From positions 138,632,001 to 138,696,000 of the forward strand of contig NC_073378.1 in NCBI RefSeq assembly GCF_028641065.1: a stretch of DNA of 64,000 nucleotides, given 5' to 3'. The DNA is from Leucoraja erinacea (Eukaryota). Below, one piece after another: positions 708 to 59,054 of the stretch. A model generated the notes under the pieces. It was not told the DNA's origin and searched no databases. It saw only the letters and a program-made list of their open reading frames with translations. Numbering within the stretch: the first letter of the stretch is position 1; each line of letters begins with the position of its first letter. A program made the translations under genes and the position numbers.

Positions 708-987
708 TAAACCTGGCGTCCGGAGCACCGGCGACCCAATCCAGCACGCATCGAAAGGCAGGTGCTGGGGGAGCCAACGACGGTGACAGCGACAGCGATT
801 TCAGGCATGGTTCATGCACGCGCACCCGTAACTCTAAGAACCCTTGGTGGAGAGTGGATCTAAAGGAAAGCTACAACGTGTCAGATGTAAGAATCACCAA
901 CAGAGCAGACTGCTGCATGGACCGGCTCCTAGGTGCCGAGATCCACATCGGGGACTCGCTAGAGAACGATGGTAATTCCAACAGACT
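708..987 (+). CDS. FTLD 1 exon A (N-terminal half)
   Basis: cag|TA AAC CTG GCG...AAC AGA CT|gtaagt, 280 nt open; NLASGAPATQSSTHRK..ANDGDSDSDFRHGSCTRT..NRADCCMDRL. Confidence 0.9.
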
Positions 988-1423
988 GTAAGTATCCAGA
1001 AGCAAACGCCGACTCTATTCAGACTGCTGCATGGTCAACATGATCAATGATAATGTGCGTGGGATTAAAAAGGGGTTGCAGGTTAAGACTGATCTAACTG
1101 CAGAAAAAAGCTAAAACGAATAACCGCCGATCTAGATGCGGGAGAATATAAGGCAGAGCCGGAGACTACTTATCCAGTAGTATCTGCTGTCGACGTATTT
1201 CCAAAGAGGTGCGGGTCAATTGAAGGAGATGTATATATCTGCAATTTAAGTTTATTTAAGTTATGTGATATTGAATAGTCGGATAGCAGTGGCAATGTTC
1301 TTGTGACGAATGACGATGCGTGAGGGATCATACAGTATCTACCCATGCAAGGTTACCTATGTATGCGGATCCTCTCCTGTGCCTACCTATCGGTTTGGAA
1401 GATGAGGAAGTATGTGTGTGTGG

Positions 1424-1425
<2 letters not shown>

Positions 1426-1460
<35 letters not shown>
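1426..1460. repeat. Poly-G tract inside a G-rich patch
   Basis: About 35 consecutive G followed by further GGG runs. Confidence 0.9.
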
Positions 1461-1461
<1 letters not shown>

Positions 1462-1627
1462 GGGTGGGAAGGAATGGTGGGAGGGGGGGGATACATAAGG
1501 CCACATCCCTCCCCACACATCCGATGAACGTATCTCCACTCCTCCAACACAGACCTATGATAACCTTTGTCACGCTCCTCATGAAGGAAGCATTGTTGTC
1601 TCAAATTTAAATCCTTATCTTTTTCAG

Positions 1628-1788
1628 ATGTGCGACCGTGGATTCGGTTTCTGCGACGACATTGACCTTCAATTGTGATGGATTTATCGGTCGATATGTG
1701 AACATCATCATCCCGGGCCAGGATAAAACTTTGACCCTGTGCGCTGTTGAGGTCTTTGGTTCAAAACTCCCGGACTTATATGGAAAAG
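1628..1788 (+). CDS. FTLD 1 exon B (short linker type)
   Basis: ttttcag|A TGT GCG...GGA AAA G|gtaggt, 161 nt; CATVDSV..FNCDGFIGRYVNIIIPG..LCAVEVFG. Confidence 0.88.
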
Positions 1789-2614: not shown

Positions 2615-2935
2615 GTCCAGGACAAGGGGTCACAGGTATGGATAGAGGGGAAATCCTTTAAGACCGAGATGAGAAAAACATTTTTCACACAGAGAGTGGT
2701 GAATCTCTGGAATTCTCTGCCACAGAAGATAGTTGAGGCCAGCCATTGGCTATATTTAAGAGGGAGTTAGATGTGGCCCTTGCGGCCAAAGGGATCAGGG
2801 GGTATGGAGAGAAGGCAGGTACGGGATACTGAGTTAGATGGTCAGCCATGATCATATTGAATGGCGGTGCAGGCTCGAAGGGCCGAATGGCCTACTCCTG
2901 CACCTATTTCTTTCTATGTATCTATGTAGCTATGT
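2615..2935 (+). mobile_element. 5'-truncated CR1 3' end
   Basis: [26 protein letters not shown] coding remnant, 3' UTR and TCTATGT tail matching the 17-22 kb element. Confidence 0.85.
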
Positions 2936-2948
2936 TTCCCACTCATAG

Positions 2949-3228
2949 ACAACGTGGCATCCAAAGCACAGTCGGACCAATCCAGCACGGATCATGGGGC
3001 AGGTGCTGGGGGAGCCATTGACGGAAACGGCGATAGCAATTTCTGGAATGGTTCATGCGCGCGCACTAGGAAATCCAACAACCCTTGGTGGAGAGCCGAT
3101 CTAAAGGAAAGCCACAACATGTCAGATGTAAGAATCACCAACAGAGCAGACTGCTGCTCCGACCAACTCCTGGGAGCCGAGATCCGCATCGGGGACTCGC
3201 TGGAAAACAATGGCAATTCCAACAGACT
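2949..3228 (+). CDS. FTLD 2 exon A
   Basis: catag|AC AAC GTG...AGA CT|gtaagt, 280 nt; matches ORF 2954-3232. Confidence 0.88.
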
Positions 3229-5129: not shown

Positions 5130-5467
5130 TTGTGGAACCGTTGATTCAGTTGCTATGACGACACTTACCTTCAATTGTGCTGGACTTGTTGGTCGATATG
5201 TGAACATCTTCATCCCGGGCCACGATAAAATCTTGACCCTGTGCGAGGTTGAGATCTTCGTTTCAAAGTTTTCTCCTATCCATATCCGGTTAGAAGAGCC
5301 CAAGAAACCCACGTCCGCACCTGAGATGGAAGAACAAACTCGCATCCATATCCCGTCCGTAAAGGGAACCAAACACCCGCCCATACCTGAAGCGTATAAC
5401 CCGCCAACAACCGGAACGAAACTTCCGTTCGTAACTGGAACAGATCTACCACCAGGCACTGTAACAG
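5130..5467 (+). CDS. FTLD 2 exon B with long P/T-rich linker
   Basis: tttcag|T TGT GGA...GTA ACA G|gtaggt, 338 nt, phase 2 to 1; ORF 5119-5484. Confidence 0.85.
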
Positions 5468-6335: not shown

Positions 6336-6339
6336 TTTT

Positions 6340-6890: not shown

Positions 6891-6954
6891 TCTCCCTCTC
6901 TCTCGGCATTAAATATATCCCTTCCGGCTCAGTGAGGTGTTTTCCACTCAATAG

Positions 6955-7234
6955 AAAGCGTGGCACGCGGAGCACCGCCGGCCCAGTCCAGCACGGAAGA
7001 AGGTGCACCTCCTGAGCTAGCTCATGACGGGAACACCGACAGCGACTTCAGGCATGGTTCATGCGCGCGCACCGCGAAATCTAAGGACCATTGGTGGAGA
7101 CTCGATCTAAATGAAAGATACAACGTGGCAGATGTAAGAATCACTAACAGAGCGGACTGCTGCTCGGACCAGCTCCTAGGAGCAGAGCTCCGCATCGGGG
7201 ATTCGCTGGAAAACGATGGCAATTCCAACAGACT
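6955..7234 (+). CDS. FTLD 3 exon A
   Basis: aatag|AA AGC GTG...AGA CT|gtaagt, 280 nt; ORF 6960-7238. Confidence 0.88.
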
Positions 7235-8725: not shown

Positions 8726-9072
8726 CTGTGGGACCGTTGTTTCCGTTGCTTTGACGACAATTATCTTCAATTGTGATGGATTCATCGGTCGATATGTGAA
8801 CATTTTCTTGCCGGGACAGGATAAAATCTTGACCTTGTGCGAGGTTGAGGTCTTTACTTCAATACTTCCTACCATCGATACCTTGTTAAAACCGAAGCCG
8901 TATCCCCCTTCCGCACACGAAAGGGAAAAGCTAACCACCACCAATACCCCTTCACTAAAGGGAACGAAACAGCCGCCTTCATTTGGAAAAGAAACGACGC
9001 CCCAGTCAACAAAGGGAACGAAAATACCGTCCATACCTGGAACGACTATCCAGCCAAGAACCGGAAAAAAAG
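8726..9072 (+). CDS. FTLD 3 exon B with long linker
   Basis: tttcag|C TGT GGG...AAA AAA G|gtacgt, 347 nt in frame; 3' end assumes the upstream donor. Confidence 0.82.
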
Positions 9073-9284
9073 GTACGTTGCTATTGGGAGCGAATCTACC
9101 ATTGGGAACGGGGGAACAGGTAGACTCATCGCTTCGCCAAGACGTGGAGACATTCTCAGCAACAAAATATATCAGCCACTGGTACAATTTCCGGACGGAG
9201 GTAATCATGTTAGACCGAGATTTAGTCCCTTCCGGCTAAAACACAGCCCCCTCGTCTCTTTCTCAATGGCATGACATCTTATTC

Positions 9285-9885: not shown

Positions 9886-10165
9886 GAAACGTGGCGGGGG
9901 GCGCAAGTCCGACCCAGTCCAGCACGGAAGAAGGGGCAGGCGCTGAAGGAGCCATTGACGGGAACAGCGACAGCGACTTCTGGAAAGGTTCATGCGCGCG
10001 CACCAGGAAATCCAAGGACCCTTGGTGGAGAGTCGATCTAAAATCAAGCAATTACGTGACAGATGTAAGAATCACCAACAGAGCAGACTGCTGCTCGGAC
10101 CAGCTCCTAGGAGCAGAGCTCCGCATCGGGGACTCGCTGGAAAACGATGGCAATTCCAACAGACT
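9886..10165 (+). CDS. FTLD 4 exon A
   Basis: cacag|GA AAC GTG...AGA CT|gtaagt, 280 nt. Confidence 0.88.
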
Positions 10166-12183: not shown

Positions 12184-12531
12184 CTGTGGGACCGTTGTTT
12201 CCGTTGCTTTGACGACAATTATCTTCAATTGTGATGGATTCATCGGTCGATATGTGAACATTTTCTTGCCGGGACAGGATAAAATCTTGACCTTGTGCGA
12301 GGTTGAGGTCTTTACTTCAATACTTCCTACCATCGATACCTTGTTAAAACCGAAGCCGTATCCCCCTTCCGCACACGAAAGGGAAAAGCTAACCACCACC
12401 AATACCCCTTCACTAAAGGGAACGAAACAGCCGCCTTCATTTGGAAAAGAAACGACGCCCCAGTCAACAAAGGGAACGAAAATACCGTCCATACCTGGAA
12501 CGACTATCCAGCCAAGAACCGGAAAAAAACG
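12184..12531 (+). CDS. FTLD 4 exon B, with a 1-nt insertion at its 3' end (frameshift or sequence error)
   Basis: Near-identical to exon B3 but GGAAAAAAAcG|gtacgt; 348 nt instead of 347. Confidence 0.7.
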
Positions 12532-13344
12532 GTACGTTGCTATTGGGAGCGAATCTACCATTGGGAACTGGAACAGGTAGACTCATCGCTTCGCCAAGAC
12601 GTGGAGACATTCTCAGCAACAAAATATATCAGCCACTGATACAATTTCCGGACGGAGGGAATCATGTTAGACCGAGATTTAGTCCCTTCCGGCTAAAACA
12701 CATCCCCCCTCGTCTCTTTCTCAATGGCATGACATCTTATTCTGAATCTGTGCCCTCTGGTCCTAGATTCCCCCACAACTGGGAACGTGCTCTCTACATT
12801 CACACTATCCAAGCCTTTCAATGTCCGATAAGATTCAATGAAATCCCCAATAATCCATTACTACTCCAGCGAATACAGGGCCCGGAACAGTAAGTGGGTC
12901 TCCATATGTTACCGTAATCAACCCAGCGATCACTCTCGTAATCCCCCACTGGACCCTCCACAATGCCAGCACATCTCAGATATGGGGCCGAAAACTGTTC
13001 ACAATATTACAAATGCGCGCTGCCCAGTGCCTTTTACCCCCCTGCTTTAACATTCTAGCTCTCTGGATATAAATGCAAAGAATGAATTTGCCTTTCTTAA
13101 CACCGGTTCAACTTGCAAATAAACATATTGGGAATCCAGCACCAGCACTCCCAAGTCCATTTGCACACCCGATTTCTGAATCACAAATGTGCCCTTCCTG
13201 AACAGAGCACTCGTCCTTGATGAGTACCCTGTTCCTGCTTTTTCCCCCAATATCCCTTGAATCCGTTATACCTGAGAGCTATAGCTTACTTTCACTTCAA
13301 TGCACCTTGCCTTTCGGCTCAGTGAGATGTTTCCGTCCCCACAG

Positions 13345-13624
13345 AAAACGTGGCGTGGGGAGCAAGTCCGACCCAGTCCAGCACGGAAGAAGGAGCAGGC
13401 GCTGAAGGAGCCATTGACGGGAACAGCGACAGCGACTTCTGGAAAGGTTCATGCGCGCGCACCAGGAAATCCAAGGACCCTTGGTGGAGAGTCGATCTAA
13501 AATCAAGCAATTACGTGACAGATGTAAGAATCACCAACAGAGCAGACTGCTGCTCGGACCAGCTCCTAGGAGCAGAGCTCCGCATCGGGGACTCGCTGGA
13601 AAACGATGGCAATTCCAACAGACT
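13345..13624 (+). CDS. FTLD 5 exon A
   Basis: cacag|AA AAC GTG...AGA CT|gtaagt, 280 nt. Confidence 0.88.
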
Positions 13625-15645: not shown

Positions 15646-15992
15646 CTGTGGGACCGTTGTTTCCGTTGCTTTGACGACAATTATCTTCAATTGTGATGGA
15701 TTCATCGGTCGATATGTGAACATTTTCTTGCCGGGACAGGATAAAATCTTGACCTTGTGCGAGGTTGAGGTCTTTACTTCAATACTTCCTACCATCGATA
15801 CCTTGTTAAAACCGAAGACGTATCCCCCTTCCGCACACGAAAGGGAAAAGCTAACCACCACCAATACCCCATCACTAAAGGGAAAGAAACAGCCGCCTTC
15901 ATTTGGAAAGGAAACGACGCCCCAGTCAACAAAGGGAACGAAAATACCGTCCATACCTGGAACGACTATCCAGCCAAGAACCGGAAAAAAAG
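15646..15992 (+). CDS. FTLD 5 exon B with long linker
   Basis: 347 nt to AAG|gtacgt; alternative in-frame donor at 16037. Confidence 0.83.
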
Positions 15993-16804: not shown

Positions 16805-17084
16805 AAAACGTGGCGTGGGGAGCAAGTCCGACCCAGTCCAGCACGGAAGAAGGGGCAGGCGCTGAAGGAGCCATTGACGGGAACAGCGACAGCGACTTCT
16901 GGAAAGGTTCATGCGCGCGCACCAGGAAATCCAAGGACCCTTGGTGGAGAGTCGATCTAAAAGAAAGCTATTACGTGACAGAAGTAAGAATCACCAACAG
17001 AGCAGACTGCTGCTCGGACCAGCTCCTAGGAGCAGAGCTCCGCATCGGGGACTCGCTGGAAAACGATGGCAATTCCAACAGACT
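16805..17084 (+). CDS. FTLD 6 exon A
   Basis: cacag|AA AAC GTG...AGA CT|gtaagt, 280 nt. Confidence 0.88.
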
Positions 17085-17227
17085 GTAAGTGTTCTTAAGC
17101 AATCGCCGAGTCAAGTCACAAGCGTTGACTTAGAAACATAGAAACATAGAAATTAGGTGCAGGAGTAGGCCATTCGGCCCTTCGAACCTGCACCGCCATT
17201 TAATATGATCATGGCTGATCATCCAAC

Positions 17228-20201: not shown

Positions 20202-21152
20202 TAGTTTAAATCCTCCCCGACAGCAGTAGCACACACCCCCCCAAGGACATTGGTTCCATTCCATTCCAGGTGCAGACCGTCCTGTTTGTACTGGTCCCAC
20301 CTCCCCCAGAACTGGTTCCAATGCCCTAAAAATTTTAATCCCTCCCCCTTGCACCATTTTTCAAGCCACGTATTCATCTGCAATATCCTCCTATTTCTGC
20401 TCTGACTGGCCCGTGGTACTGGTAGTAATCCAGAGATTATTACCTTTGAGGTCCTACTTTTAAGCTTATCTCCTAGCTCCCTAAATTCATCCTTTAGGAC
20501 CTCATCCCTTTTTTTACCTATATCGTTGGTGCCAATATGCACCACGACAACTGGCTGTTCACCCTCCCCCTCCAGAATGTTCTGCAGCCGTTCAGTGACA
20601 TCCCTGACCCTTGCACCAGGGAGGCAACATACCATCCTGGAGTCTCTTTTGCGGCCGCAGAAACGCCTATCTATTCCCCTGACAATTGAATCCCCTATTA
20701 CTATTGCCCTTCCACTCTTTCCCCCCCCCCCCCTCATGTGCCGCAGAGCCACCCATGGTGCCATGAACTTGGCTGCTGCTGCATTCCCCTGATGAGCAAT
20801 CTCCCTCAACAGTTTCCAAAATGGTATACCTGTTTAGGAGGGAGATGACTGCAGGGGACTCCTGCACTACCTGCCTACTGCTTTGCTGACTATTGGCCAC
20901 CCGTTCCCCTTCCGTCCTCTTACCTTTTACCTGCGGTGTGACCAACTCACTGTACGTGCTGTCCACGACTTTCTCAGTGTCGTGGATGCTCCAGTATGAA
21001 TCCAACCGCAGCTCCAATCGTTCAATGCGGTCTGCCAGGAGCTGCAGCTGTACACACTTCCTGCAAACATAGTCACCAGGGACACCGACCATATCCCTGA
21101 TCTCCCACATGTTGCAGGCTGAGCAAACCACGGGGCCAATCTCCACCGACAT
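20201..21152 (-). CDS. CR1 ORF1 (CxxC..CxxC zinc finger, leucine zipper, SGNH/GDSL esterase); one frameshift in the homopolymer at 20721-20733
   Basis: ORF 20667-21152 ([30 protein letters not shown]) continues in ORF 20201-20809 ([28 protein letters not shown]). Confidence 0.85.
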
Positions 21153-21232
21153 ATCCTACTCCCAATTTAACTATATTAAATATTGAAAAACACAAAACTT
21201 TATCTGTTAAACTTTACTAATAAATACTGTAC

Positions 21233-21301
21233 CCTTATCTCCCAGAATCCTTATCTCCCAGAATCCTTATCTCCCAGAATCCTTATCTCCCAGAATCCTT
21301 A
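21233..21301. repeat. 16-bp minisatellite x4.3 in the LINE 5' UTR
   Basis: ccttatctcccagaat repeated four times plus cctta. Confidence 0.9.
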
Positions 21302-21387
21302 GCCTAAAGGCAAAAATGTAAAAATGTAAACCAATCAGAGGCTTCCCCCAGACTCCTTCTCTGGAACGTTTGCGTTTTGGTCGCAGG

Positions 21388-21912
21388 TTACAGCGCAGGT
21401 ACTCCTCCCCTCTCACCAACGGCTCCCTGGGCCTCTGTGGAAACAAGCCCCGCGGTGTATTTTATACTTACAGCGCAGGTACTCCTCCCCTCTCACCAAC
21501 GGCTCCCTGGGCCTCTGTGGAAACAAGCCCCGCGGTGTATTTTATACTTACAGCGCAGGTACTCCTCCCCTCTCACCAACGGCTCCCTGGGCCTCTGTGG
21601 AAACAAGCCCCGCGGTGTATTTTATACTTACAGCGGTACTCCTCCCCTCTCTCGGCAACGGCTCCCTGGGCCTCTGTGGAAACAAGCCCCGCGGTGTATT
21701 TTATACTTACAGCGCAGGTACTCCTCCCCTCTCACCAACGGCTCCCTGGGCCTCTGTGGAAACAAGCCCCGCGGTGTATTTTATACTTACAGCGCAGGTA
21801 CTCCTCCCCTCTCACCAACGGCTCCCTGGGCCTCTGTGGAAACAAGCCCCGCGGTGTATTTTGTACTTACAGCGCAGGTACTCCTCCCCTCTCTCGGCAA
21901 CGGCTCCCTGGG
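21388..21912 (-). repeat. About 6.5 tandem 80-bp monomers at the 5' end of the CR1 LINE
   Basis: + strand unit ttacagcgcaggtactcctcccctctcaccaacggctccctgggcctctgtggaaacaagccccgcggtgtattttatac repeats with 80-bp period. Confidence 0.92.
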
Positions 21913-23880: not shown

Positions 23881-24227
23881 CTGTGGGACCGTTGTTTCCG
23901 TTGCTTTGACGACAATTATCTTCAATTGTGATGGATTCATCGGTCGATATGTGAACATTTTCTTGCCGGGACAGGATAAAACCTTGACCTTGTGCGAGGT
24001 TGAGGTCTTTACTTCAATACTTCCTACCATCGATACCTTGTTAAAACCGAAGACGTATCCCCCTTCCGCACACGAAAGGGAAAAGCTAACCACCACCAAT
24101 ACCCCTTCACTAAAGGGAAAGAAACAGCCGCCTTCATTTGGAAAGGAAACGACGCCCCAGTCAACAAAGGGAACGAAAATACCGTCCATACCTGGAACGA
24201 CTATCCAGCCAAGAACCGGAAAAAAAG
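23881..24227 (+). CDS. FTLD 6 exon B with long linker
   Basis: tttcag|C TGT...AAG|gtacgt, 347 nt. Confidence 0.83.
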
Positions 24228-25039: not shown

Positions 25040-25319
25040 AAAACGTGGCGTGGGGAGCAAGTCCGACCCAGTCCAGCACGGAAGAAGGGGCAGGCGCTGA
25101 AGGAGCCATTGACGGGAACAGCGACAGCGACTTCTGGAAAGGTTCATGCGCGCGCACCAGGAAATCCAAGGACCCTTGGTGGAGAGTCGATCTAAAAGAA
25201 AGCTATTACGTGACAGATGTAAGAATCACCAACAGAGCAGACTGCTGCTCGGACCAGCTCCTAGGAGCAGAGCTCCGCATCGGGGACTCGCTGGAAAACG
25301 ATGGCAATTCCAACAGACT
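25040..25319 (+). CDS. FTLD 7 exon A
   Basis: 280 nt, AG/GT boundaries, open frame. Confidence 0.88.
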
Positions 25320-27335: not shown

Positions 27336-27682
27336 CTGTGGGACCGTTGTTTCCGTTGCTTTGACGACAATTATCTTCAATTGTGATGGATTCATCGGTC
27401 GATATGTGAACATTTTCTTGCCGGGACAGGATAAAATCTTGACCTTGTGCGAGGTTGAGGTCTTTACTTCAATACTTCCTACCATCGATACCTTGTTAAA
27501 ACCGAAGACGTATCCCCCTTCCGCACACGAAAGGGAAAAGCTAACCACCACCAATACCCCTTCACTAAAGGGAAAGAAACAGCCGCCTTCATTTGGAAAG
27601 GAAACGACGCCCCAGTCAACAAAGGGAACGAAAATACCGTCCATACCTGGAACGACTATCCAGCCAAGAACCGGAAAAAAAG
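27336..27682 (+). CDS. FTLD 7 exon B with long linker
   Basis: 347 nt, AG/GT boundaries, open frame. Confidence 0.83.
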
Positions 27683-28494: not shown

Positions 28495-28774
28495 AAAACG
28501 TGGCGGGGGGAGCAAGTCCGACCCAGTCCAGCACGGAAGAAGGGGCAGGCGCTGAAGGAGCCATTGACGGGAACAGCGACAGCGACTTCTGGAAAGGTTC
28601 ATGCGCGCGCACCAGGAAATCCAAGGACCCTTGGTGGAGAGTCGATCTAAAAGAAAGCTATTACGTGACAGATGTAAGAATCACCAACAGAGCAGACTGC
28701 TGCTCGGACCAGCTCCTAGGAGCAGAGCTCCGCATCGGGGACTCGCTGGAAAACGATGGCAATTCCAACAGACT
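28495..28774 (+). CDS. FTLD 8 exon A
   Basis: 280 nt, AG/GT boundaries, open frame. Confidence 0.88.
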
Positions 28775-30781: not shown

Positions 30782-31128
30782 CTGTGGGACCGTTGTTTCC
30801 GTTGCTTTGACGACAATTATCTTCAATTGTGATGGATTCATCGGTCGATATGTGAACATTTTCTTGCCGGGACAGGATAAAATCTTGACCTTGTGCGAGG
30901 TTGAGGTCTTTACTTCAATACTTCCTACCATCGATACCTTGTTAAAACCGAAGACGTATCCCCCTTCCGCACACGAAAGGGAAAAGCTAACCACCACCAA
31001 TACCCCTTCACTAAAGGGAAAGAAACAGCCGCCTTCATTTGGAAAGGAAACGACGCCCCAGTCAACAAAGGGAACGAAAATACCGTCCATACCTGGAACG
31101 ACTATCCAGCCAAGAACCGGAAAAAAAG
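30782..31128 (+). CDS. FTLD 8 exon B with long linker
   Basis: 347 nt, AG/GT boundaries, open frame. Confidence 0.83.
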
Positions 31129-31940: not shown

Positions 31941-32220
31941 AAAACGTGGCGTGGGGAGCAAGTCCGACCCAGTCCAGCACGGAAGAAGGGGCAGGCGCTG
32001 AAGGAGCCATTGACGGGAACAGCGACAGCGACTTCTGGAAAGGTTCATGCGCGCGCACCAGGAAATCCAAGGACCCTTGGTGGAGAGTCGATCTAAAAGA
32101 AAGCTATTACGTGACAGATGTAAGAATCACCAACAGAGCAGACTGCTGCTCGGACCAGCTCCTAGGAGCAGAGCTCCGCATCGGGGACTCGCTGGAAAAC
32201 GATGGCAATTCCAACAGACT
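31941..32220 (+). CDS. FTLD 9 exon A
   Basis: 280 nt, AG/GT boundaries, open frame. Confidence 0.88.
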
Positions 32221-34236: not shown

Positions 34237-34583
34237 CTGTGGGACCGTTGTTTCCGTTGCTTTGACGACAATTATCTTCAATTGTGATGGATTCATCGGT
34301 CGATATGTGAACATTTTCTTGCCGGGACAGGATAAAATCTTGACCTTGTGCGAGGTTGAGGTCTTTACTTCAATACTTCCTACCATCGATACCTTGTTAA
34401 AACCGAAGCCGTATCCCCCTTCCGCACACGAAAGGGAAAAGCTAACCACCACCAATACCCCTTCACTAAAGGGAAAGAAACAGCCGCCTTCATTTGGAAA
34501 GGAAACGACGCCCCAGTCAACAAAGGGAACGAAAATACCGTCCATACCTGGAACGACTATCCAGCCAAGAACCGGAAAAAAAG
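34237..34583 (+). CDS. FTLD 9 exon B with long linker
   Basis: 347 nt, AG/GT boundaries, open frame. Confidence 0.83.
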
Positions 34584-35395: not shown

Positions 35396-35675
35396 AAAAC
35401 GTGGCGTGGGGAGCAAGTCCGACCCAGTCCAGCACGGAAGAAGGGGCAGGCGCTGAAGGAGCCATTGACAGTAACAGCGACAGCGACTTCTGGAAAGGTT
35501 CATGCGCGCGCACCAGGAAATCCAAGGACCCTTGGTGGAGAGTCGATCTAAAAGAAAGCTATTACGTGACAGATGTAAGAATCACCAACAGAGCAGACTG
35601 CTGCTCGGACCAGCTCCTAGGAGCAGAGCTCCGCATCGGGGACTCGCTGGAAAACGATGGCAATTCCAACAGACT
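35396..35675 (+). CDS. FTLD 10 exon A (AIDSN variant of the cation-binding motif)
   Basis: 280 nt, AG/GT boundaries; GAC AGT AAC replaces GAC GGG AAC. Confidence 0.88.
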
Positions 35676-37948: not shown

Positions 37949-38382
37949 CTGTGGAACCGTTGATTCAGTTGCTTTGACAACACTTACCTTCAATTGCGAT
38001 GGACTTGTAGGTCGATATGTGAACATCTTCTTGCCGGGACTGGATAACACCTTGACCCTGTGCGAGGTTGAGATATTTGCATCAAAAAGTCCTTATATCC
38101 ATATCCCGTTAGAAAATGACACGAGAGCCACGTCCGCACCTGATACGAAAGCGCACACTCCCGTCCAAAACCCGCCCGTAAAGGGAACGAAACTCCCGCC
38201 AATATCTGGAACGAAAATCCCGTCCGCAATGGAAACGACCACCCAGTCCGCAGAGGGAACGACGCCCGAGTCCGCAGAGGGAAAGGAAATACCGCCCAAA
38301 CCTGGAACGAATATCCCGCCAACAACCGTAAGGAATCTTTCGTTCGGAACTGGAACACATCTACTGTCTGGAGCTGGAACAG
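37949..38382 (+). CDS. FTLD 10 exon B with the longest P/T/S-rich linker
   Basis: tttcag|C TGT GGA...GGA ACA G|gtaggc, 434 nt in frame; ORF 37974-38417. Confidence 0.85.
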
Positions 38383-39721: not shown

Positions 39722-40001
39722 AAAACGTGGCGCTCGGAATGAGTGCGACCCAGTCCAGCATAGATGAGGGGGCAGTTGCTGAACGAGCCAATGACGGGAC
39801 CATCGACACCGACTTCACGCATGGTTCATGCGCGCGCACCATTAAATCGAAGAACCCTTGGTGGAGAGTCGATCTAAAGGAAAGCTACAGCGTGTCAGAT
39901 GTAAGAATCACCAACAGAGCAGACTGCTGCTCGGACCAGCTCCTAGGAGCCGAGATCCACATCGGGGACTCGCTGGAGAACGATGGCAATTCCAACACAC
40001 G
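39722..40001 (+). CDS. FTLD 11 exon A
   Basis: aacag|AA AAC GTG...ACA CG|gtaaat, 280 nt. Confidence 0.86.
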
Positions 40002-40179: not shown

Positions 40180-43100
40180 AACATAGAAACATAAAATCAT
40201 AGAAAATGGGTGCCTGCACCGCTATTCAATATGATCATGGCTGATCATCCAACTCAGTATCCTGTACCTGCCTTCTCTCCAAACCCCCTGATCCCATTAG
40301 CCACAAGTGCCACATCTACCTACCTCTTAAATATAGCCAATGGACTTGCCTCAACTACCTTCTGTGGCAGAGAGTTCCAGAGATTCACCACTCTCTGTGT
40401 GAAAATGTTTCTCACATCTTAGTCCTAAAGGATTTCCCCTTAATCCTTAAACTGTGAGCCCTTGTCATGGATTTCCCCAACATTGGGAACAATCTTCCTG
40501 CATCTAGTCGGTCCAAACCTTTAAGAATTTTGTAAGTTTCTATAAGATCCCCCCTCAATCTTCTAAATTCTAGCGAGTACAAGCTGAGTGTATCCAATCT
40601 TTCTTCATATGAAAGCGCTGACATCCCAGGAATCAGTCTGGTGAAAGTTCTCTGTACTCCCTGTATGTCAAGAATGTCTTTACTCAGATTTGGAGACCAA
40701 CAATGTACGCAATACTCCAGGTGTGGTCTCACCAATACCCTTTACAACTGCAGTAGAACCTCCCTGCTCCTGTACACCAATCCTTTTGCTTTGAATGCTA
40801 ACATGCCATTCGCTTTATTCACTGCCCGGTGCACCTATATGCCTACTTTCATATAACCATATAACCATATAACAATTACAGCACGAAAACAGGCCATCTC
40901 GGCCCTACAAGTCCGTGCCGAACAACTTTTTTCCCTTAGTCCCACCTGCCTGCACTCATACCATAACCCTCCATTCACTTCTCATCCATATGCCTATCCA
41001 ATTATTTTTAATTGATACCAACGAACCTGCCGCCACCACTTCCACTGGAAGCTCATTCCACACCGCTACCATTCCTGGAGTAAAGGAGTTCCCCATCATG
41101 TTACCCCTAAACGGCTGTCCCTTCATTCTGAAGTCATGTCCTCTTGTTTGAATCTTCCCTATTCTCAAAGGGAAAAGCTTGTCCACATCAACTCTGTCTA
41201 TCCCTCTCAGCATTTTAAAGACCTCCATCAAGTCCCCCCTTAACCTTCTGCGCTCCAGAGAATAAAGACCTAACTTATTCAAGCTATCTCTGTAACTTAG
41301 TTGTTGAAACCCAGGCAACATTCTAGTAAATCTCCTCTGTACTCTCTCTCTATTTTGTAGACATCCTTCCTATAATTGAGCGACAAAAATTGTACACCAT
41401 ACTCCAGATTTGGTCTCACCAATGCCTTGTACAATTTTAACATTACATCCCAGCTTCTATACTCAATGCTCTGATTTATAAAGGCTAGCATACCAAAAGC
41501 TTTCTTTACCAACCTATCTACATGAGATTCCACTTTCAAGGAACTATGCACGGTTATTCCCAGATCCCTCTGTTCAACTGTATTCTTCAATTCCCTTCCA
41601 TTTACCATGTACGTCCCATTTTGATTTGTCCTGCCAAGGTGTAGCACCTCACATTTATCAGCATTAAACTCCATGTGCTATCTTTCAGCCCATTTTTCCA
41701 AATGGCCTAAATCACTCTGTAGACTTTGGAAATCCTCTTCATTATCCACAACACCCCCTATCTTGGTAACATCTGCATACTTACTCATCCAATTTACCAC
41801 CCCTTCATCCAGATCATTGATGTACATGACAAACAACAAAGGACCCAACACAGATCCTCTATTCACCTGCCTCCAACCCGACAAACAGCCATCCACCATT
41901 ACCCTCTGGCATCTCCCATTCAGCCACTGTTGAATCCATCTTGCTATTCCGGCATTTATACCCAACACTGTAATGTGACTGGTGTACCATGACACCCAGG
42001 TCTCGTTGCATCTCCCCTTTTCCTAATCTCCCACAATTTAGATAATAGTCTACTTTCCTGTTGTTGCCACCAAAATGGATAACCTCACATTTATCCACAT
42101 TATACTGCATCTGCCATGCATATGCCCACTCACCCAGCCTAACCAAGTCACCTTGCAGCCACCTAGCATCCTCCTCACAACTAACACTGCCCCCTAGCTT
42201 CGTGTCATCCGCAAACCTGGAGATGTTGCATTCAATTCTCTCGTCCAAATCATTAATATATATTATAAATAGATGGCATCCCAGCACCGAGCCTTTAGGT
42301 ACCACACTATTCACTGCCTGCCATTCTGAAAAAAGACCCGTTTACTCCTGCTCTTTGCTTCCTGTTTGCCAGCCAGTTCTCTATCCACATCAATACTGAA
42401 CCCCCAATAACAAGTACTTTATGTTTGTATACTAATCTCTTATGTGGGACCTTGTCAAAAGCCTTCTGAAAGTCCAGATATAACACATCCACTGGTTCTC
42501 CCTTATCCACTCTACTAGTTACATCCTCGAAAAATTATATAAGATTCTTCAGACATGATTTACTTTTCGTAAATCCATGCTGACTTTGACCAGTGATTTC
42601 ACCACTTTCCAAATGTGCTGCTATTCCATTATTAACAACTGACTCTAGCAGTTTCCCCACTGCCGATGTTAGACTAACATGTCTGTAATTCCCCGTTTTC
42701 TCTCCTCCTCCCTTTTTAAAAAGTAGAGTTGCATTAACTACCCTCCAATCCTCAGGAACCACTCCAGAATCTACCAAGTTTTGAAAAAATATCACTAATG
42801 CATCCACTATTTCTGGGGCTACTTTCTTTAGTACTCTGGGATGCAGTCGAACTGGCCCTATGTATTTATCGGCCTTTAATCCATTCAATTTACCTAACAC
42901 CAATTCCCGGCTAATCTGGATTTCACTCAGTTGCTCCATCTCATTTCCGGCAGATTATTTATGTCTTCCGTAGTGAAGACAGAACCAAAGTTTTTATTCT
43001 ATTGGTCTGCAATGTCCTTGTTCCCCATGATCAATTCACCTGTTTCTGACTGCAAGGGACCTACATATGTTTTAACTAATCTATTTATCTTCATATATCT

Positions 43101-43720
43101 ATAAGCTTTTGCAGTCAGTTTTTATGTTCACTGCCAGGTTTCTTTCATAATCTACTTTCCCTTTCCTAATTAAGCCCTTTATCCTCCTCTGCTGGACTCT
43201 GAATTTATTCCAGTCCTCTACTCGGCTGCTTTTTGTGGCTAATTTATACGCTTCATCTTTTGTTTTGATATTATCCATGATTTCCCTTGTTATCCACGAA
43301 TGCACTACCTTCCCTGATTTATTATTTTGCCAAACTGGGATGAACAATTGTTGTAGTTCATCCAAGCAGTCTTTAAATGCCTTCCATTGCATATCCACCG
43401 TCAACCCTTTAAGAATCACTTGCCAGTCAATCTTGGCCAATTCACGTCTCATACCCTCAATGTTACCTTTCTTTAAGTTCAAAACCCTTGTTTCTGAATT
43501 ATCAATGTCACTCTCCATCCTAATGAGGAACTCAACCATATTATGGTCACTCTTGCCCAAGGGGCCACGCACAACAAGACTTCTAACTAATCCTTCCTCA
43601 TTACTCAATTCACAGTCTAGAATAGCCTGCTCTCTCGTTGGTTCCTCGACATGTTGGTTTAGAAGTTTACCCTGCATACATTCCAAGACATCCTCTTCCT
43701 CAGCACCCCTGCCAATTTGA
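40180..43720 (-). mobile_element. 5'-truncated decayed CR1 of the same family as the 17-22 kb element
   Basis: ORF fragments [43 protein letters not shown] closely parallel ORF2 at 17-20 kb; catagaaac tail at 40180. Confidence 0.9.
40852..41974 (-). mobile_element. Different CR1 family 3' fragment nested inside the 40-44 kb element
   Basis: Host sequence cctactttca|gtgactggtgtacc is split; insert has a distinct ataaccatataaccat tail and MEFNADKCEVLHLGRTN, SKYADVTKIGG. Confidence 0.85.
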
Positions 43721-44335: not shown

Positions 44336-44446
44336 CTGTGGAATCTTTGACTCAGTTTCGGGGACTTCAATTGGGGTGGATCTATCGGTCGCTATGTGAA
44401 CGTCATCATCACAGGAAAATGTTTTTACCCTGTGCGAGATTGAGAA
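44336..44446 (+). pseudogene. Decayed exon B (pseudo-exon), frameshifted and truncated by a CR1 fragment
   Basis: tttcag|CTGTGGAATC..ATCGGTCGCTATGTGAACGTCATCATC..ACCCTGTGCGAGATTGAG with internal deletions and a premature TGA; no donor. Confidence 0.82.
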
Positions 44447-47740: not shown

Positions 47741-47901
47741 CTGTGGAATCGTGGATTCAGTTGCTGGGACGACGTTGACCTTCAATTGCGGTGGAATTGT
47801 CGGTCAATATGTGAACATCGTCATCCCAGGCCCGGATAAAATTTTAACCCTGTGCGAGGTTGAGATATTTGGCTCAGAACTCCCGCACTTCCATGGAAAA
47901 G
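47741..47901 (+). CDS. FTLD 11 exon B (short)
   Basis: tttttcag|C TGT GGA...GGA AAA G|gtaggc, 161 nt. Confidence 0.86.
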
Positions 47902-48676: not shown

Positions 48677-48956
48677 AAAATCTGGCGTTCGGAGCCAGTC
48701 CGATCCAATCCAGCACGGATGAAGGGGCAGTTGCTGAGCGAGCCAATGACGGTAACAGCGACAGCGACTTCAGGCATGGTTCATGCTCGCGCACCAGAAA
48801 ATCGAAGAACCCTTGGTGGAGAGTCGATCTAAATGAAACCCACCTCATATCAGATATAAGAATCACCAACAGAGCAGACTGCTGCTCGGACCAACTCCAA
48901 GGGGCCGAGATTCGCATCGGGGACTCGCTAGAGCACGATGGCAATTTCAACAGACT
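48677..48956 (+). CDS. FTLD 12 exon A
   Basis: cacag|AA AAT CTG...AGA CT|gtaagt, 280 nt. Confidence 0.88.
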
Positions 48957-49738: not shown

Positions 49739-49899
49739 CTGTGGAATCGTTGATTCGGTTTCTTGGAAGACATTGACCTTCTATTGCGGTGGAATTGTCG
49801 GTCGATATGTGAACGTCATCATCCCAGGCCCGGATAAAACGTTAACCCTGTGCGAGGTGGAGATATTTGGTTCAGAACTCCCGTACTTACATGGAAAAG
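49739..49899 (+). CDS. FTLD 12 exon B (short)
   Basis: ttttag|C TGT GGA...AAA G|gtaggc, 161 nt. Confidence 0.87.
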
Positions 49900-51658: not shown

Positions 51659-51938
51659 AAAACGTGGCGTTGGGAGCAAGTCCGACCCAGTCGAGTACGG
51701 ATGAAGGGGCAGCTGCGGAGGGAGCCAATGACGGTAACAGCGACAACGACTTCAGGCATGGCTCATGCTCGCGCACCAGGAAATCGAAGAACCCCTGGTG
51801 GAGAGTTGATCTAACAGAAAGCTTCAACGTGTCAGACGTCATAATCACCAACAGAGCAGACTGCTGCTCCGACCAGCTCCAAGGAGCCGAGATCCGCATC
51901 GGGGACTCGCTGGAGAATGAGGGCAATTCCAACAAACT
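51659..51938 (+). CDS. FTLD 13 exon A
   Basis: aacag|AA AAC GTG...AAA CT|gtaaga, 280 nt. Confidence 0.88.
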
Positions 51939-52726: not shown

Positions 52727-52887
52727 CTGTGGAATCGCCGATGCAGTTTTCGGACCGAAATTGATCTTCATTTGCGATGGATTTATCGGTCGATATGTGA
52801 ACGTCATCATCCCAGGCCCGGATAAAATCCTAACCCTGTGCGAGGTTGAGATATTTGGTTCAGAACTCGAGTACTTACATGGAAAAG
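52727..52887 (+). CDS. FTLD 13 exon B (short)
   Basis: tttcag|C TGT GGA...AAA G|gtaggc, 161 nt. Confidence 0.87.
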
Positions 52888-53535
52888 GTAGGCTGGACAC
52901 CGCGCTGATGCTCTGGTTGTACACAGCCCCACAACTTAGCTAAGCGATTTTCCCGCTGATAAAGTCTGAGTTTAAGTTCCTTGTTGAAGCCCAGTACAGC
53001 CACTCCCTACGCTCTGGTCTTTGCCATTCGTAGTTTTCTCACCAGTCTTGGACCCTCGCTGTGTCCGAACATGTGCATGGCTGTTCATGAAATCCCTGAG
53101 ACGGTCGGTACATTAGCCTTCAACCAATTCGTCCGCAAACATTATGCTGACAAACACCAGCCACGCACCAAAAATACACTTCTATGGAAGCACGGTTATA
53201 GAGTATATTCCTGTTACCCGCTAGAGAACGGTCCTCACATGAGTTGCAGTGCAATCCCGATATTCATCTTACCTCAGCGCGGTTCGCAGACCAATGTTCC
53301 CTAGCCCTATTGCTATAATACGATGACACCATGTTATACAATCTGTTGTTTTATTTGTACTTTACCTTTTGCTCTTGTGTGCGGCTTCATTGCACTGATG
53401 TGCAGTATGATGTTTGTGTAGCACAAAAAATTGTTTGCACTGCATCGCGCTTCACTTGACCACACTAAATGAGAACGAATATCAATGCAATGCACTGTTG
53501 ACCCAAACCCTGACAGCAGGCCGACATCCCTTGGT

Positions 53536-53540
<5 letters not shown>

Positions 53541-53591
<51 letters not shown>
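53541..53591. repeat. Poly-C tract
   Basis: About 51 consecutive C just upstream of the collapsed relic. Confidence 0.9.
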
Positions 53592-53624
53592 TTTCGGTCC
53601 AGTGAGATGTTTCTCGCCCAACAT

Positions 53625-53677
53625 AAAACGCGGCGTTGGGATATTTGTTTAGGAACTCCCGTCCTTACATGGAAAAC
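53625..53677 (+). pseudogene. Collapsed domain relic: start of an exon A fused to the end of an exon B
   Basis: aacat|AAAACGCGGCGTTGG (exon A start, acceptor AG mutated to AT) runs directly into GATATTTGTTTAGGAACTCCCGTCCTTACATGGAAAAC|gtagac (exon B end); both flanks are homologous intron sequence. Confidence 0.8.
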
Positions 53678-54407: not shown

Positions 54408-54687
54408 AAAACTTTGCGTTGGAATCAAGTACGACCCAGTCCAGCACGTATCCAGGGTCAGGTTCTGAGAGAGCTAACGATGGTAACAGCGACAGCGACT
54501 TCAGGCATGGTTCATGCGCGCGCACATATAAATCCAGGGACCCTTGGTGGAGAGTCGATCTAAATGAAAGCTACAACGTGTCAGATGTAAGAATCACCAA
54601 CAGAGCAGACTGCTGCTCGGAGCATCTCGTAGGTGCCGAGATCCGCATCGGTGATTCGCTGGAGAAAGATGGCAATTTCAACAGACT
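54408..54687 (+). CDS. FTLD 14 exon A
   Basis: tacag|AA AAC TTT GCG...AGA CT|gtaagt, 280 nt; NRADCCSEHL. Confidence 0.88.
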
Positions 54688-55019: not shown

Positions 55020-56645
55020 GAATATAAAGCCGGACAGTAAAAGCTTCTTTAGGTATGTGAAGAGGAAAACATTAGTTCAGACCAAAGATGGACCCTTGAA
55101 AACCGAAAAGGGTGAATTTATTATGGGGAACAAGGAAATGGCAGATGAGTACGTTGGGTCTGTCTTCACTAAGGAGGACACAAACAATCCTCCTGATATA
55201 GTAGTGGCCAAATGATCTGGGGTGACGGAGGAACTGAAGGAAATCCAAATTAGGCAGGAAATGCTGTTGTATAGACTGATGGGACTGAAGGCCGGTAAAT
55301 CCCCAGGACCTGCTGGTCTGCATCCCAGGGTACTTAAGGAAGTGGCTCTAGAAATCCTGGATACATTGGTGATAATTTTCCAATTTTCTATAGACTCAGG
55401 GTCAGTTCCTGTGGATTGGAGGGTAGCTAATGTTATCCCACTTTTTAAGAAAGACCGGAGAGAGAAAACATGGAATAATAGACCAGTTAGCCTGACATCG
55501 GTGGTGGGGAAGATGCTGGAGTCAATTATAAAAGATGAGATAGCCGAACATTTAGATAGCAGGAACGGGATCGGTCCGAGTCAGCATGGATGCATGAAGG
55601 GGAAATCATGCTTGACTAATCTACTGGATTTTTTTTGCAGATGTACCTAGGAATATGGAGAAAGGAGAGCCAGTGGATGTAGTGTACCTGGACTTTCAGA
55701 AAGCATTTGATAAGGTCCCATGTAGGAGATTATTGGCAAAATTAGGGCACATTGTATTGGGGATAGAATGCTGCATGGATAATGAAGTGGTTGGCAGACA
55801 GGAAACAAAGAATAGGGATTTAAAGGACCCTTTCAGAAGGACAGGCAGTGACTGGTGGAGTACCGCAAGGCTCGGTGCTGGGATCGTAGCTATATACAAT
55901 ATACCTCAATGATTTGTATGAAGTAACAATAGCAAATTTGCAGATTACGCAAAGCTGGGTGGCAGTGTGAGCTGTGACTTGGACAGGTTGGAGGAGTGGG
56001 CAGATGCATGGCAGTTGATGATTAATGCGGATAAATGTGAGGTTGTCCCCTTTGGTAGCAGAAACAGGAAGACAGACTACTATCTAAATGGAGTCAGATT
56101 GGGGAAAATGGGATACAACGGGATATGGGCGTCCTCGAACATCAGTCTATGAAAGTAAGCATGCAGGTGCAGCAGGCAGTGAATAAAGCGAATGGCATGT
56201 TGGCCTTTATAACACGAGGAACCGAATATAGGAGCAGAGAAGTCCTGCAGTTGTACAGAGCCCTAGTGAGACCACACCTGGCGTATTGTGTGCAGGTTTT
56301 GTCCCCTAATTTGAGAAAGGACATTCTTGATATTGAGGGAGTGCATCGTAGGTTTACACGGTTAATTCCCGGGGTGGCGGGACTGTCATATGCTGACAGA
56401 ATGGAGCATCTGGGTTTGTACACTCTGGAGTTTAGAAGGATGAGAGGCAATCTCATCGAAACATATCAGATTGCTAAGTGTTTGGACGCTCTATAGGCAG
56501 GAAACATATTCCAATTGGTGTGTGAGTCCAGAACCAGGGGCCACAGTTTAAGAATAAGGAGTAAGCCATTTAGAATCGAGACGAGGAAACACTTCTTCTC
56601 GCAGAGAGGTGTGAGTCTGTGGAATTCTCTGCCTCAGAGGGCGGA
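55020..56645 (+). mobile_element. Decayed CR1 RT segment, apparently within a CpG-rich short repeat (54935-54990, 56645-56850)
   Basis: [49 protein letters not shown] remnants. Confidence 0.88.
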
Positions 56646-57266
56646 GGCGGCATACACGATACGACACGCCGGAGGCGCGCAAAGAATGTATGCCCAACAA
56701 AATCCTGGAGCGCGGCGCGATACCGCGCGGAACTCCATACTCCTCCGCGCTTCTCCATGCGACCGTCCCGCGCGGCCCACACGCTACCAGTGCGCCTCAA
56801 CGCGACGAGGTCGCGTAAATGTGCGCAAATGATGGCCAAGTGAGACAGGTATCCAGTGGCTAGTATTAAGCATCATGCCCGCTCGGTCCACTCAGGGCTA
56901 TCTTTGTGTGTGTGGGAACGAAATGCAGATGCAGGTTTCAACCGAATTTAGACATAAAAAGCTAGAGTAACTCATCCGATCGGAGAGCAACTCTGGAGAA
57001 AAAGTATAGCAGACGTTTCGGGTAGAGAACCTTCTTCAGTCTCCAGGGACGATGTCTGACCCGGAACGCTACTTATCTATTCGCAACATCTGTTGTTCCG
57101 AACAGGAGCAAGATGATACGATGCCGTCAATTGCCACGGGAGCACCACATATCACCGGAACGTGTCATAATTGCACTACAACAGGCCTATGGTAACTTTT
57201 GACACGCTTCCTCATACGCACGATCGAGACAATGGAATCTTACCTTTACATACTCATCTTTTTTAG

Positions 57267-57427
57267 CTGTGGAATCGTTGATTCTGTTTCTGTGACGACA
57301 TTGACTTTCAATTGTGGTGGATATGTCGGTCGATATGTGAACATCATCATCCCAGGCCCGGATCAAATCTTAACCCTGTGTGAGGTTGAGATATTTGGTG
57401 CAAAACTCCCGCACTTCCGTGGAAAAG
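57267..57427 (+). CDS. FTLD 14 exon B (short)
   Basis: ttttag|C TGT GGA...AAA G|gtaggc, 161 nt. Confidence 0.87.
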
Positions 57428-57659
57428 GTAGGCTGAATCCGCTGCGGCTCCGCCGCACAGCTTACTTGAGCGAGTCTTCCGCTGATAACGTTTGAGAATA
57501 ATTACATCACTGAAGACAAGTACCGGAATCCCCAACGTTCTGCTCTTTGTAATTCTTAGTTTAATCGCCAGTCTTTCACACTACATTTGTCCAAGCACGA
57601 GCCTGTCTACGAGTGCAATATATGAGAGACTCGCCGCACATGCTCACATCCTTTCAGTC

Positions 57660-58180
57660 AGAGAAATAGAAACATTGAAAATAGGTAGCTGGTCCAGTCC
57701 TTGTATAATTTTATATGTTTCGATATGATGAGATCCCCCTCATCTTTCTAAACTCTAGTGAATACAAGCCTAGTCTTTTCAATCGTTCCTCATATGACAG
57801 TCCCGCCATCCCAGGGATCAATCTTGTCAACCTACTCTGCACTGCTTCAATCACAAGGATGTCGTTCCGCAAATTCGTAGGCCAAAACTGTACGCAATAC
57901 TCCAAATGTGGTCTCACCAGAGCCCTATACAACTGCAGAAGAACCTTTTTACTCCTATACTGAAATCCTCTTGTTATGAAGGCCAATATTCCATTAGTTT
58001 TCGTCACTGCCTGCTGTACCTGCACGTCAACTTTCAGTGGCCAGTGTACAAGGACAACCAGGTCTCGCTGTACCTCCCCTCTTATCTAACTTAACCCCAT
58101 TGAGATAATAATCTGCACCCTTGTTTTTGCCACAAAAGAGGATAACCTCACATGTGTCTATATTTTATTGCATCTGCCAC
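57660..58180 (-). mobile_element. CR1 3' fragment with internal deletion
   Basis: [38 protein letters not shown]. Confidence 0.82.
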
Positions 58181-58774
58181 GCTTCAGCCACGCGACCTAA
58201 TACTAATAAGCACCATCCCCGCACCAACGAAATGCACATCTCATGGAACACGCTTGGAGATTACCACCCTACTGTCAGATTATGTAACGGTCCTATCTTG
58301 AAATGCCGTGTAACCTTATTACTTTAACGCCTCAGTGCGGTGTTGGGTCTTTTTTCCATAACCGTAAATCCATTACACTGTGACACCATATCATGAAATC
58401 TATTGATTTTTCTACTTTATCTGTTCCTTGATTTGATTAGATTTGATAGTGGAGACGAGGGCATTCACTTCTTCGCGCTTCATTTGACCATAGTAAAGCA
58501 ACGCACAGCATCACATACTAGTTGAGCGAGCCTCCAGCTGATTTTGCTTTTCACTTTACCTGTTGCTCTTGTGCAAGGCTTCATAGAGATGATGTGTGAT
58601 ATGATTTGAGTGGATGGTACAAACACGGGTTTCCACTGCATCTTACATCACTTGGGATACTAAAGCAATACTTATATCAATTAAATACGTTGATCCAAAC
58701 CGTGATAGAAAGCCTACATCCGTCGGCATTTAATATCGCCCTTGCGGTTCAGTGAGGTTTTTCCTTACGAACAG

Positions 58775-59054
58775 AAAATGTGGCTTTCGGAAAACCGTCG
58801 ACCCAGTCCAGCGCGTATCGATGGGCAGGTGCTAGGCGAGCCAATGACGGTAACAGCGATACCGATTTCACGCATGGTTCATGCACACGCACCTGGAAAT
58901 CCAAGAACCCTTGGTGGAGAGTCGATCTATTAGAGATCTTCAACGTGTCAGATGTACGAATCACCAACAGAGCAGACTGCTGCTCGGACCGGCTCCGTGG
59001 AGCGGAGATCCGCATCGGGAACTCACTGGCGAACGATGGCAATTCTAACGGACT
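58775..59054 (+). CDS. FTLD 15 exon A
   Basis: aacag|AA AAT GTG...GGA CT|gtgagt, 280 nt; NRADCCSDRL. Confidence 0.88.

Follow-up and report, generated by a model that had tools for sequence, protein, structure and literature searches.

A tandem F-type lectin array of the little skate with Arg in place of the fucose-contacting His52

The 64-kb window analysed here, 64,000 nucleotides of the little skate Leucoraja erinacea (contig NC_073378.1, positions 138,632,001 to 138,696,000 of the forward strand), carries a tandem array of F-type lectin domains. A six-frame motif scan identified 15 such domains, all on the plus strand, and a nucleotide profile search of the window returned the same 15 exons and none in addition. 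Each domain is encoded by a 280-bp exon A (phase 1-2) followed by an exon B (phase 2-1); AG/GT ends are present at all 30 exons and the splice phases are compatible along the chain. In units 2-10, exon B continues into a linker of 66-98 amino acids, 39-45% of which are Pro, Thr or Ser, and these Pro/Thr linkers are mucin-like. The product is presumably an extracellular string of F-type lectin-fold domains. Five L. erinacea database proteins (P0011, P0012, P0013, P0019 and P0022) match exons of the window letter for letter.

Fold and calcium site place the domains in the F-type family, but they lie outside the canonical fucose motif. Searches with phmmer matched them to striped bass MsaFBP32 (3CQO, E 5e-46) and to eel agglutinin (1K12, E 2e-22), with Pfam assignments PF22633/PF00754, and a model of domain 13 adopts the F-type fold with a predicted local distance difference test score (pLDDT) of 82, its top Foldseek matches being 3CQO (root-mean-square deviation 1.7) and 1K12 (1.9). 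Among the calcium ligands, D38, S49 and C146 are present in 15/15 domains and E147 in 14/15, and the disulfide cysteines 50-146, 82-83 and 108-124 are kept throughout. The Asp of the cation motif is likewise found in all 15, although domain 10 has DS for DG, and Asn or His precedes this pair in seven, which leaves the h2 part of h2DGx loose. In the fucose site of this family, His52 is the acceptor for the 4-OH of fucose. According to the available parts of two reviews (PMC5712786/PMC12221842), His52, Arg79 and Arg86 of eel agglutinin hydrogen-bond the axial 4-OH, the ring O5 and the 3-OH, and Cys82-Cys83 and Phe45 make apolar contacts. The exon of domain 6 aligns to 1K12 without gaps (query 16-91 on chain 30-105, E 2.4e-22), which places a skate Arg on His52 and a Gln on Arg86. 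Codon 52 is CGC (Arg) and codon 79 is AGA (Arg) in every domain. At codon 86, domains 1 and 15 have CGG (Arg), domain 14 has CAT (His) and the other 12 have CAG/CAA (Gln). No domain carries the canonical sugar motif H-x24/26-R-x-D-x4-R/K, since the His is present in 0/15 and the last-position Arg in 2/15. Misalignment or a substitute His can be rejected from the gapless alignment, in which no other His takes column 52; the nearby His47 is also found in eel agglutinin. Codon reading and alignment thus bear out what the first-pass annotation had claimed, namely a His-to-Arg change in all 15 domains at exact spacing with Gln, Arg or His at position 86, and its description of NRADCC, cation motif and cysteines as conserved holds in 15/15 domains apart from the DS of domain 10.

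The copies are closely related. Units 4-10 make up a recent tandem repeat of 3.45 kb whose DNA is 94-98% identical over long blocks, and among units 4-9 the differences amount to 0-7 in 417 coding nucleotides, units 7 and 9 being identical; the 15 copies are therefore not independent and represent about nine distinct lineages. Units 3 and 10, which bound the recent expansion, are mosaic: unit 3 joins a divergent exon A to an exon B of the units 4-9 type, and unit 10 an exon A of that type to a divergent exon B. Partial duplicates of the intron preceding exon A lie at 81-340, 53,243-53,675 and 58,315-58,502; a short, broken beginning of exon A (about 318-340) comes after one of them and the 3' end of an exon B after another, and these are relics of unequal crossing-over.

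For a skate tree, positions 52 and 86 were removed from the alignment, units 4, 5, 7, 8 and 9 were omitted as near-copies, and, of 77 rows, the 25 that were long-branch or distant were dropped, all 77 being included in a quick tree. Thirty-eight skate domains from three species, 10 of them from the window, form one group with moderate support (77/87). Within this group, position 52 is Arg in 34 domains, Ser in two, Gln in two and His in none; position 79 is Arg in all 38; and position 86 is Gln in 23, Arg in eight, Trp in three and His, Lys, Glu or Leu in one each. Written as residues 52/79/86, 22 of the 38 are R/R/Q and none is canonical. R/R/Q was found in 7/18 retrieved domains of Amblyraja radiata and 7/16 of Rhinoraja longicauda, and among 18 domains of other rays and sharks Arg52 occurs in one and R/R/Q in none. 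Arg52 is thus most simply explained by one change early in the skate array, and these comparisons indicate that Arg52 is probably a single ancestral change copied by tandem duplication and common to the two other skates. Fifteen independent rewirings are rejected by the tandem repeat, the near-copies and the skate tree. A single clade of all 23 Gln86 domains is rejected (approximately unbiased (AU) test, p=0.018); position 86 has therefore changed several times or undergone conversion between copies. Being variable and not monophyletic, Gln86 is also rejected as a fixed new catalytic or binding residue. The systematic rewiring of all three positions that had been proposed therefore does not stand, because Arg52 behaves as one inherited change and position 86 is variable. 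Amblyraja has one-to-one partners for window domains 1, 2, 3, 4-10, 11, 12 and 13; the seven-fold expansion of units 4-10 is seen only in the window, the database models holding one Amblyraja partner, and an R/R/W domain sits at the same array position in the three skate species.

The His52 domain closest to the Arg52 group, in P0005 and P0009 of Amblyraja and Rhinoraja, has the triad H/R/L, conserved between both. The shark single-domain 'fucolectin-like' proteins P0030, P0031 and P0032 have Ser52, and all three are without Asp81 and the Cys82-Cys83 motif. We considered shark S/R/R fucolectins as the source of Arg52 and set them aside because their long branch has an unstable position in the tree; His may have passed to Arg directly or via Ser.

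Across the 14 distinct window units, the ratio of nonsynonymous to synonymous substitution rates (dN/dS, omega) is 0.56 and lies below 1 (p=3.5e-6), with about half of the sites fitting omega=1. Since units 3 and 10 look recombinant between exons, the tests were repeated per exon with separate trees. Exon A gives a dN/dS of 0.51-0.52, with about 48% of sites near an omega of 0.08 and 7% near 4; the positive signal stays in exon A (p 0.0003-0.0006) and exon B has no positive class. This rerun rejects between-exon recombination as the sole source of positive selection, gene conversion within exon A being uncontrolled, and as mean synonymous divergence (0.33) is below intron divergence (0.37-0.53), gene conversion may bias the selection tests. 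Positions 52 and 79 are assigned to the constrained class with probabilities of 0.89-0.93 and 0.91-0.93, position 86 to the neutral class (0.94-0.95) and position 54, adjoining Arg52, to the positively selected class (P=1.0, model test p<0.001). Exon A shows no indels among 15 copies, compared with 3.9-4.8 per pair in the flanking introns, and Phe45, Cys82-Cys83 and Arg79-Asp81 each show 0-1 changes in the 38 skate domains. Fold residues, the calcium site, Cys82-Cys83, Phe45 and Arg79-Asp81 are under purifying selection, and Arg52 is probably so as well. That the motif changes are not random decay, as the first-pass annotation had argued, is upheld by the dN/dS and the indel counts.

Outside skates, we aligned 1,406 domains from 378 proteins (three homologue searches and one representative search), a sample biased to query-like multi-domain proteins and including near-duplicates, and 1,325 of these have all three positions. 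Non-canonical triads are ordinary, with 724 canonical domains and 601 (45%) non-canonical ones, and both reviews, in their available parts, likewise report this (PMC5712786, PMC12221842). His52 is replaced in about 36%, mostly by small residues (Ala, Ser, Leu, Val) with Arg86 kept. Arg52 is recurrent, being found in 42 domains; R/R/Q occurs in a single one (kiwi), in keeping with the non-canonical pocket that had been proposed. Among proteins with at least four domains, 145/183 have at least one canonical domain and 38/183 have none. The five-domain F-type protein of birds has position-specific triads, mostly RRR, HRS/N, QRR, HRR/S and HRR. In 14/14 bird proteins (P0050, P0322, P0327, P0328, P0330, P0339, P0349, P0350, P0352, P0355, P0356, P0371, P0375 and P0377) domain 1 has Arg52. 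Domains 1 and 5 are homogenised in the second half of exon A, with identities of up to 100% within a species, yet they keep Arg and His, respectively, at position 52. When lineages are counted after clustering at 75% identity, position 86 is basic in 8/18 Arg52 lineages versus 223/255 His52 lineages, and R/R/H appears in two independent lineages, coelacanth and Astyanax (2/18 Arg52 lineage-states versus 4/469, p=0.018). There is weak support here for a putative compensation between positions 52 and 86.

The surroundings of Arg52 also differ from those of other F-type domains. The net charge of residues 53-58 averages +1.7 in 43 skate domains versus -0.6 in 1,310 non-skate domains: skate domains have T-x-K-S-K after Arg52, with Ser at position 56, where Glu or Asp is usual elsewhere. 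The last loop has Lys in 95% of skate domains versus 21% of non-batoid domains, where Glu accounts for 40%. Judging by the structure of eel agglutinin (AAA), we take these basic loops to border the pocket. In little-skate skin, 91.5% of O-glycans are fucosylated and 41.7% sulfated, as given in the available part of one study (PMC10532229), so a candidate ligand exists.

We favour, at a probability of roughly 45%, a retuned multivalent glycan pocket built on Arg52 and Arg79 with a basic rim that would favour anionic (sulfated) glycans. Arg probably replaced His52 early in the skate array and spread by duplication. Arg52 and Arg79 would then provide both guanidinium groups of the pocket, making Arg86 dispensable and leaving position 86 free to vary, mostly as Gln, and the loops around the pocket, after Arg52 and in the last loop with its Lys, would have turned basic. 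Such a pocket would most likely remain a glycan binder, of high avidity through repetition, without being a plain fucose site any longer; its preferred ligands would be anionic, probably sulfated, fucosyl or galactosyl glycans, and individual domains might be tuned by positions 54, 46, 86 and 88. More conjecturally, and with odds well against it, the array may form a giant bead-on-a-string lectin of probably about 20 domains, its pocket re-anchored on Arg52/Arg79 and reading sulfated fucosyl-galactose or another anionic glycan, with Arg52 as a recurring specificity switch; if so, Arg52, fixed in bird domain 1 too, would define a sulfate-reading subclass of F-type lectins.

Several observations weigh against the retuned pocket. 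The basic rim is partly older than Arg52, being seen in other rays, and 14/15 domains are net acidic overall. Arg52 shows three changes in 38 domains, which equals the median column (3), and its constraint likelihood ratio per site is just 9-14. Reversion to His by CpG transition is absent; on its own this is uninformative, 10/22 synonymous CpG transitions having been seen, and we discarded it as an argument for selection on Arg52. Two other positively selected sites, domain residues 4 and 21, do not clearly lie at the pocket. Outside skates, 445/601 non-canonical domains combine a non-His residue at 52 with Arg79, so Arg79 may be structural, and loss of a basic residue at 86 is not clearly greater with Arg52 than with other non-His residues (basic in 8/18 versus 140/203, p=0.06). 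Finally, the frame break of unit 4 described below, if real, truncates the chain.

Much of the same evidence bears on two other accounts of the pocket. The long side chain of Arg52 might fill the fucose site, releasing position 86 and leaving the domains as structural beads or protein-binding modules. Position 86 indeed belongs to the neutral class and tolerates W, E, L, K, H, Q and R, the steps CGG->CAG and CGG->TGG would be ordinary CpG decay, and the 38/183 non-skate proteins that have several domains and no canonical one fit the same pattern; a role of this kind is suggested for Drosophila furrowed, and both reviews, in the parts available, say that such deviations may mean loss of binding (PMC5712786, PMC12221842). 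Yet a plugged pocket sits poorly with the near-invariance of Phe45, Cys82-Cys83 and Arg79-Asp81, with positive selection at position 54 beside Arg52, and with the R/R/W domain kept at one array position in three skates, which suggests a position-specific function, and we regard it as unlikely, if worth keeping in mind. The pocket could instead retain fucose through a swap of roles, with two Arg and one hydrogen-bond acceptor as before, the acceptor now being Gln86 (His86 in domain 14) in place of His52, and a lower affinity offset by at least 15 domains. The net charge of the triad would be unchanged if His is neutral, R/R/H recurs in the coelacanth and Astyanax lineages, His52 is often replaced outside skates, and Khairnar et al. 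(2019) reportedly found the His dispensable in some domains. Against such a swap, Gln86 is not fixed (15/38 skate domains have another residue) and the Gln domains are not one clade, most His replacements elsewhere are small residues with Arg86 kept, and the enrichment of R/R/H amounts to two cases; we think it distinctly doubtful.

That the array is decaying or pseudogenic, its motif changes being meaningless, is a reading to which the dN/dS of a mere 0.56, the many sites fitting omega=1, the frame break in unit 4 and the lack of any expression evidence found could be made to point. Neutrality is rejected, however, all 15 copies of exon A remain at 280 bp without an indel where introns have about 4-5 per pair, and Amblyraja and Rhinoraja have intact orthologous domains; a spare copy of exon B (44,336-44,445), unlike the array exons, has decayed with frameshifts. 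Pseudogenic decay is accordingly very improbable. A further alternative concerns gene structure only. The database annotation divides the region into several genes (the five models named above), and AATAAA is present in 10/14 inter-domain introns, as might be expected if these were separate one- or two-domain fucolectin genes in a cluster. With unit 4 apart, however, no exon B copy has a stop before its phase-matched donor, a scan of the window found a leader-like exon in 0/14 inter-domain introns, none of the five models starts with a signal peptide recognisable by eye, and the Rhinoraja annotation has one nine-domain protein (P0002), all of which makes separate genes improbable. The lack of stops before exon B donors and of leader-like exons makes one long gene the simplest reading, and on this reading a single very long gene would extend its domain chain beyond both ends of the window: upstream, the database protein P0012 has an R/R/W domain ahead of domain 1, and downstream a 16th domain is probably to be expected just past the window end. 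The locus appears mis-annotated as many small genes.

Two details of the chain qualify its translation. In exon B of unit 4 (12,520-12,535), one extra base precedes the donor and both candidate donors are out of phase, so that splicing as assembled yields a stop at chain residue 791; this 1-bp frame break may stem from faulty assembly or may truly truncate the chain, and skipping the entire unit would preserve the frame. Downstream of the linker there are two candidate phase-1 donors, at 9,073-9,125 and at the equivalent places in units 4-9. Of these, the distal donor agrees with those of units 2 and 10 and is out of phase in unit 3, and linker length in these units is uncertain, at 69 amino acids or about 15 more. 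The exons are listed in Table 1.

Table 1. Exons of the F-type domain array and related elements in the window; triads are residues 52/79/86, with codon start positions.
Feature	Position	Strand	Remarks
Domain 1 exon A	708..987	+	280 bp, phase 1-2; R/R/R, codon starts 821, 902, 923
Domain 1 exon B	1628..1788	+	phase 2-1; short linker
Domain 2 exon A	2949..3228	+	R/R/Q at 3062, 3143, 3164
Domain 2 exon B	5130..5467	+	with 66-aa Pro/Thr/Ser-rich linker
Domain 3 exon A	6955..7234	+	R/R/Q at 7068, 7149, 7170
Domain 3 exon B	8726..9072	+	with 69-aa Pro/Thr/Ser/Lys-rich linker
Domain 4 exon A	9886..10165	+	R/R/Q at 9999, 10080, 10101; opens 3.45-kb tandem repeat (units 4-10)
Domain 4 exon B + linker	12184..12531	+	3' end one base longer than sister copies; frame broken
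Domain 5 exon A	13345..13624	+	R/R/Q at 13458, 13539, 13560
Domain 5 exon B + linker	15646..15992	+	
Domain 6 exon A	16805..17084	+	R/R/Q at 16918, 16999, 17020
Domain 6 exon B + linker	23881..24227	+	
Domain 7 exon A	25040..25319	+	R/R/Q at 25153, 25234, 25255
Domain 7 exon B + linker	27336..27682	+	
Domain 8 exon A	28495..28774	+	R/R/Q at 28608, 28689, 28710
Domain 8 exon B + linker	30782..31128	+	
Domain 9 exon A	31941..32220	+	R/R/Q at 32054, 32135, 32156
Domain 9 exon B + linker	34237..34583	+	
Domain 10 exon A	35396..35675	+	R/R/Q at 35509, 35590, 35611; cation motif DG -> DS
Domain 10 exon B	37949..38382	+	with 98-aa Pro/Thr/Ser-rich linker
Domain 11 exon A	39722..40001	+	R/R/Q at 39835, 39916, 39937
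Domain 11 exon B	47741..47901	+	
Domain 12 exon A	48677..48956	+	R/R/Q at 48790, 48871, 48892
Domain 12 exon B	49739..49899	+	
Domain 13 exon A	51659..51938	+	R/R/Q at 51772, 51853, 51874; fold modelled via identical database protein P0022
Domain 13 exon B	52727..52887	+	
Domain 14 exon A	54408..54687	+	R/R/H at 54521, 54602, 54623
Domain 14 exon B	57267..57427	+	
Domain 15 exon A	58775..59054	+	R/R/R at 58888, 58969, 58990
Domain 15 exon B	59765..59925	+	intact phase-1 donor at end, no stop codon
Decayed exon B copy	44336..44445	+	frameshifting deletions; internal control for unconstrained copies
Intron sequence homologous to stretch preceding each exon A	63773..63983	+	profile match E 8e-26; basis of predicted 16th domain

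The introns also hold mobile elements. A 4.8-kb insertion in the unit 6 intron (17,131-21,912, minus strand) is a non-LTR (long terminal repeat) retrotransposon with an 822-amino-acid open stretch (endonuclease and reverse transcriptase), a GDSL-esterase open reading frame 1 (ORF1) and an 80-bp tandem repeat at 21,388-21,912, and a related copy lies at about 41,976-43,720. Broken fragments resembling long interspersed nuclear elements (LINEs) occur at about 60,400-62,330 and 55,020-56,630, the latter alone with a Pfam reverse-transcriptase match.

The array is a real, skate-typical variant of the F-type domain, less striking than 15 parallel rewirings and a good natural series for the study of atypical pockets. 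The ligand of atypical F-type domains is an acknowledged open question, which the array makes testable: its R/R/Q, R/R/R and R/R/H pockets differ from the canonical site by one or two residues and sit in backgrounds that are almost the same. Should the specificity prove new, it would open a natural way to obtain lectin reagents for sulfated glycans and would have implications for the mucus or immune biology of skates; with a dead pocket, the array would be an ordinary pseudo-lectin one. F-type domains had been noted in skates by 2017, in the available part of one of the two reviews (PMC5712786/PMC12221842), and an F-type protein of a catshark has been found in skin mucus (PMC10707392, available part). 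Our literature searches turned up neither this array nor an R/R/Q triad, although the tables or supplements of Bishnoi 2015, Khairnar 2019 and Odom and Vasta may list such motifs, nor did they turn up anything that links this locus to a tissue such as skin mucus or ampullary gel. An ESM Atlas search returned known F-type clusters only.

Compared with eel agglutinin (AAA, 1K12) and striped bass MsaFBP32/MsFTL1 (3CQO), the skate domains have the same fold, spacing, calcium residues, Cys82-Cys83, Phe45 and Arg79-x-Asp81. According to the available parts of the reviews, MsaFBP32 has two exons per domain, the same number as in the skate array, and the cleft loops of AAA are negative, in contrast to the basic rim loops of the skate (PMC5712786/PMC12221842). 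Both known lectins have His52 and Arg86 and one or two domains, whereas the skate array has Arg52, mostly Gln86 and at least 15 domains with mucin-like linkers. Other F-type domains likewise depart from H/R/R, among them Drosophila furrowed, oyster bindin isoforms, bryohealin and ranaspumin-4, which are shown or proposed to have changed their specificity or lost binding; those named in the available parts of the reviews have aliphatic or V/Q/K combinations, with no mention there of R/R/Q (PMC5712786, PMC12221842). Tandem arrays of other vertebrates, such as the five-domain pentraxin fusion of Xenopus and unstudied 5-9-domain proteins of fish, turtles and birds, are also arranged head to tail with position-specific non-canonical triads. 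For the Xenopus PXN1 type, the pentraxin Pfam family is listed in no skate database protein, the end of the gene lying beyond the window. Those arrays usually mix canonical and non-canonical domains, whereas the 38-domain skate group has no canonical member, and domain 1 of the bird protein shares Arg52 with the skates. The arrays of Amblyraja radiata and Rhinoraja longicauda, annotated as 'uncharacterized' or 'fucolectin-like', are orthologous and have the same R/R/Q-dominated domains.

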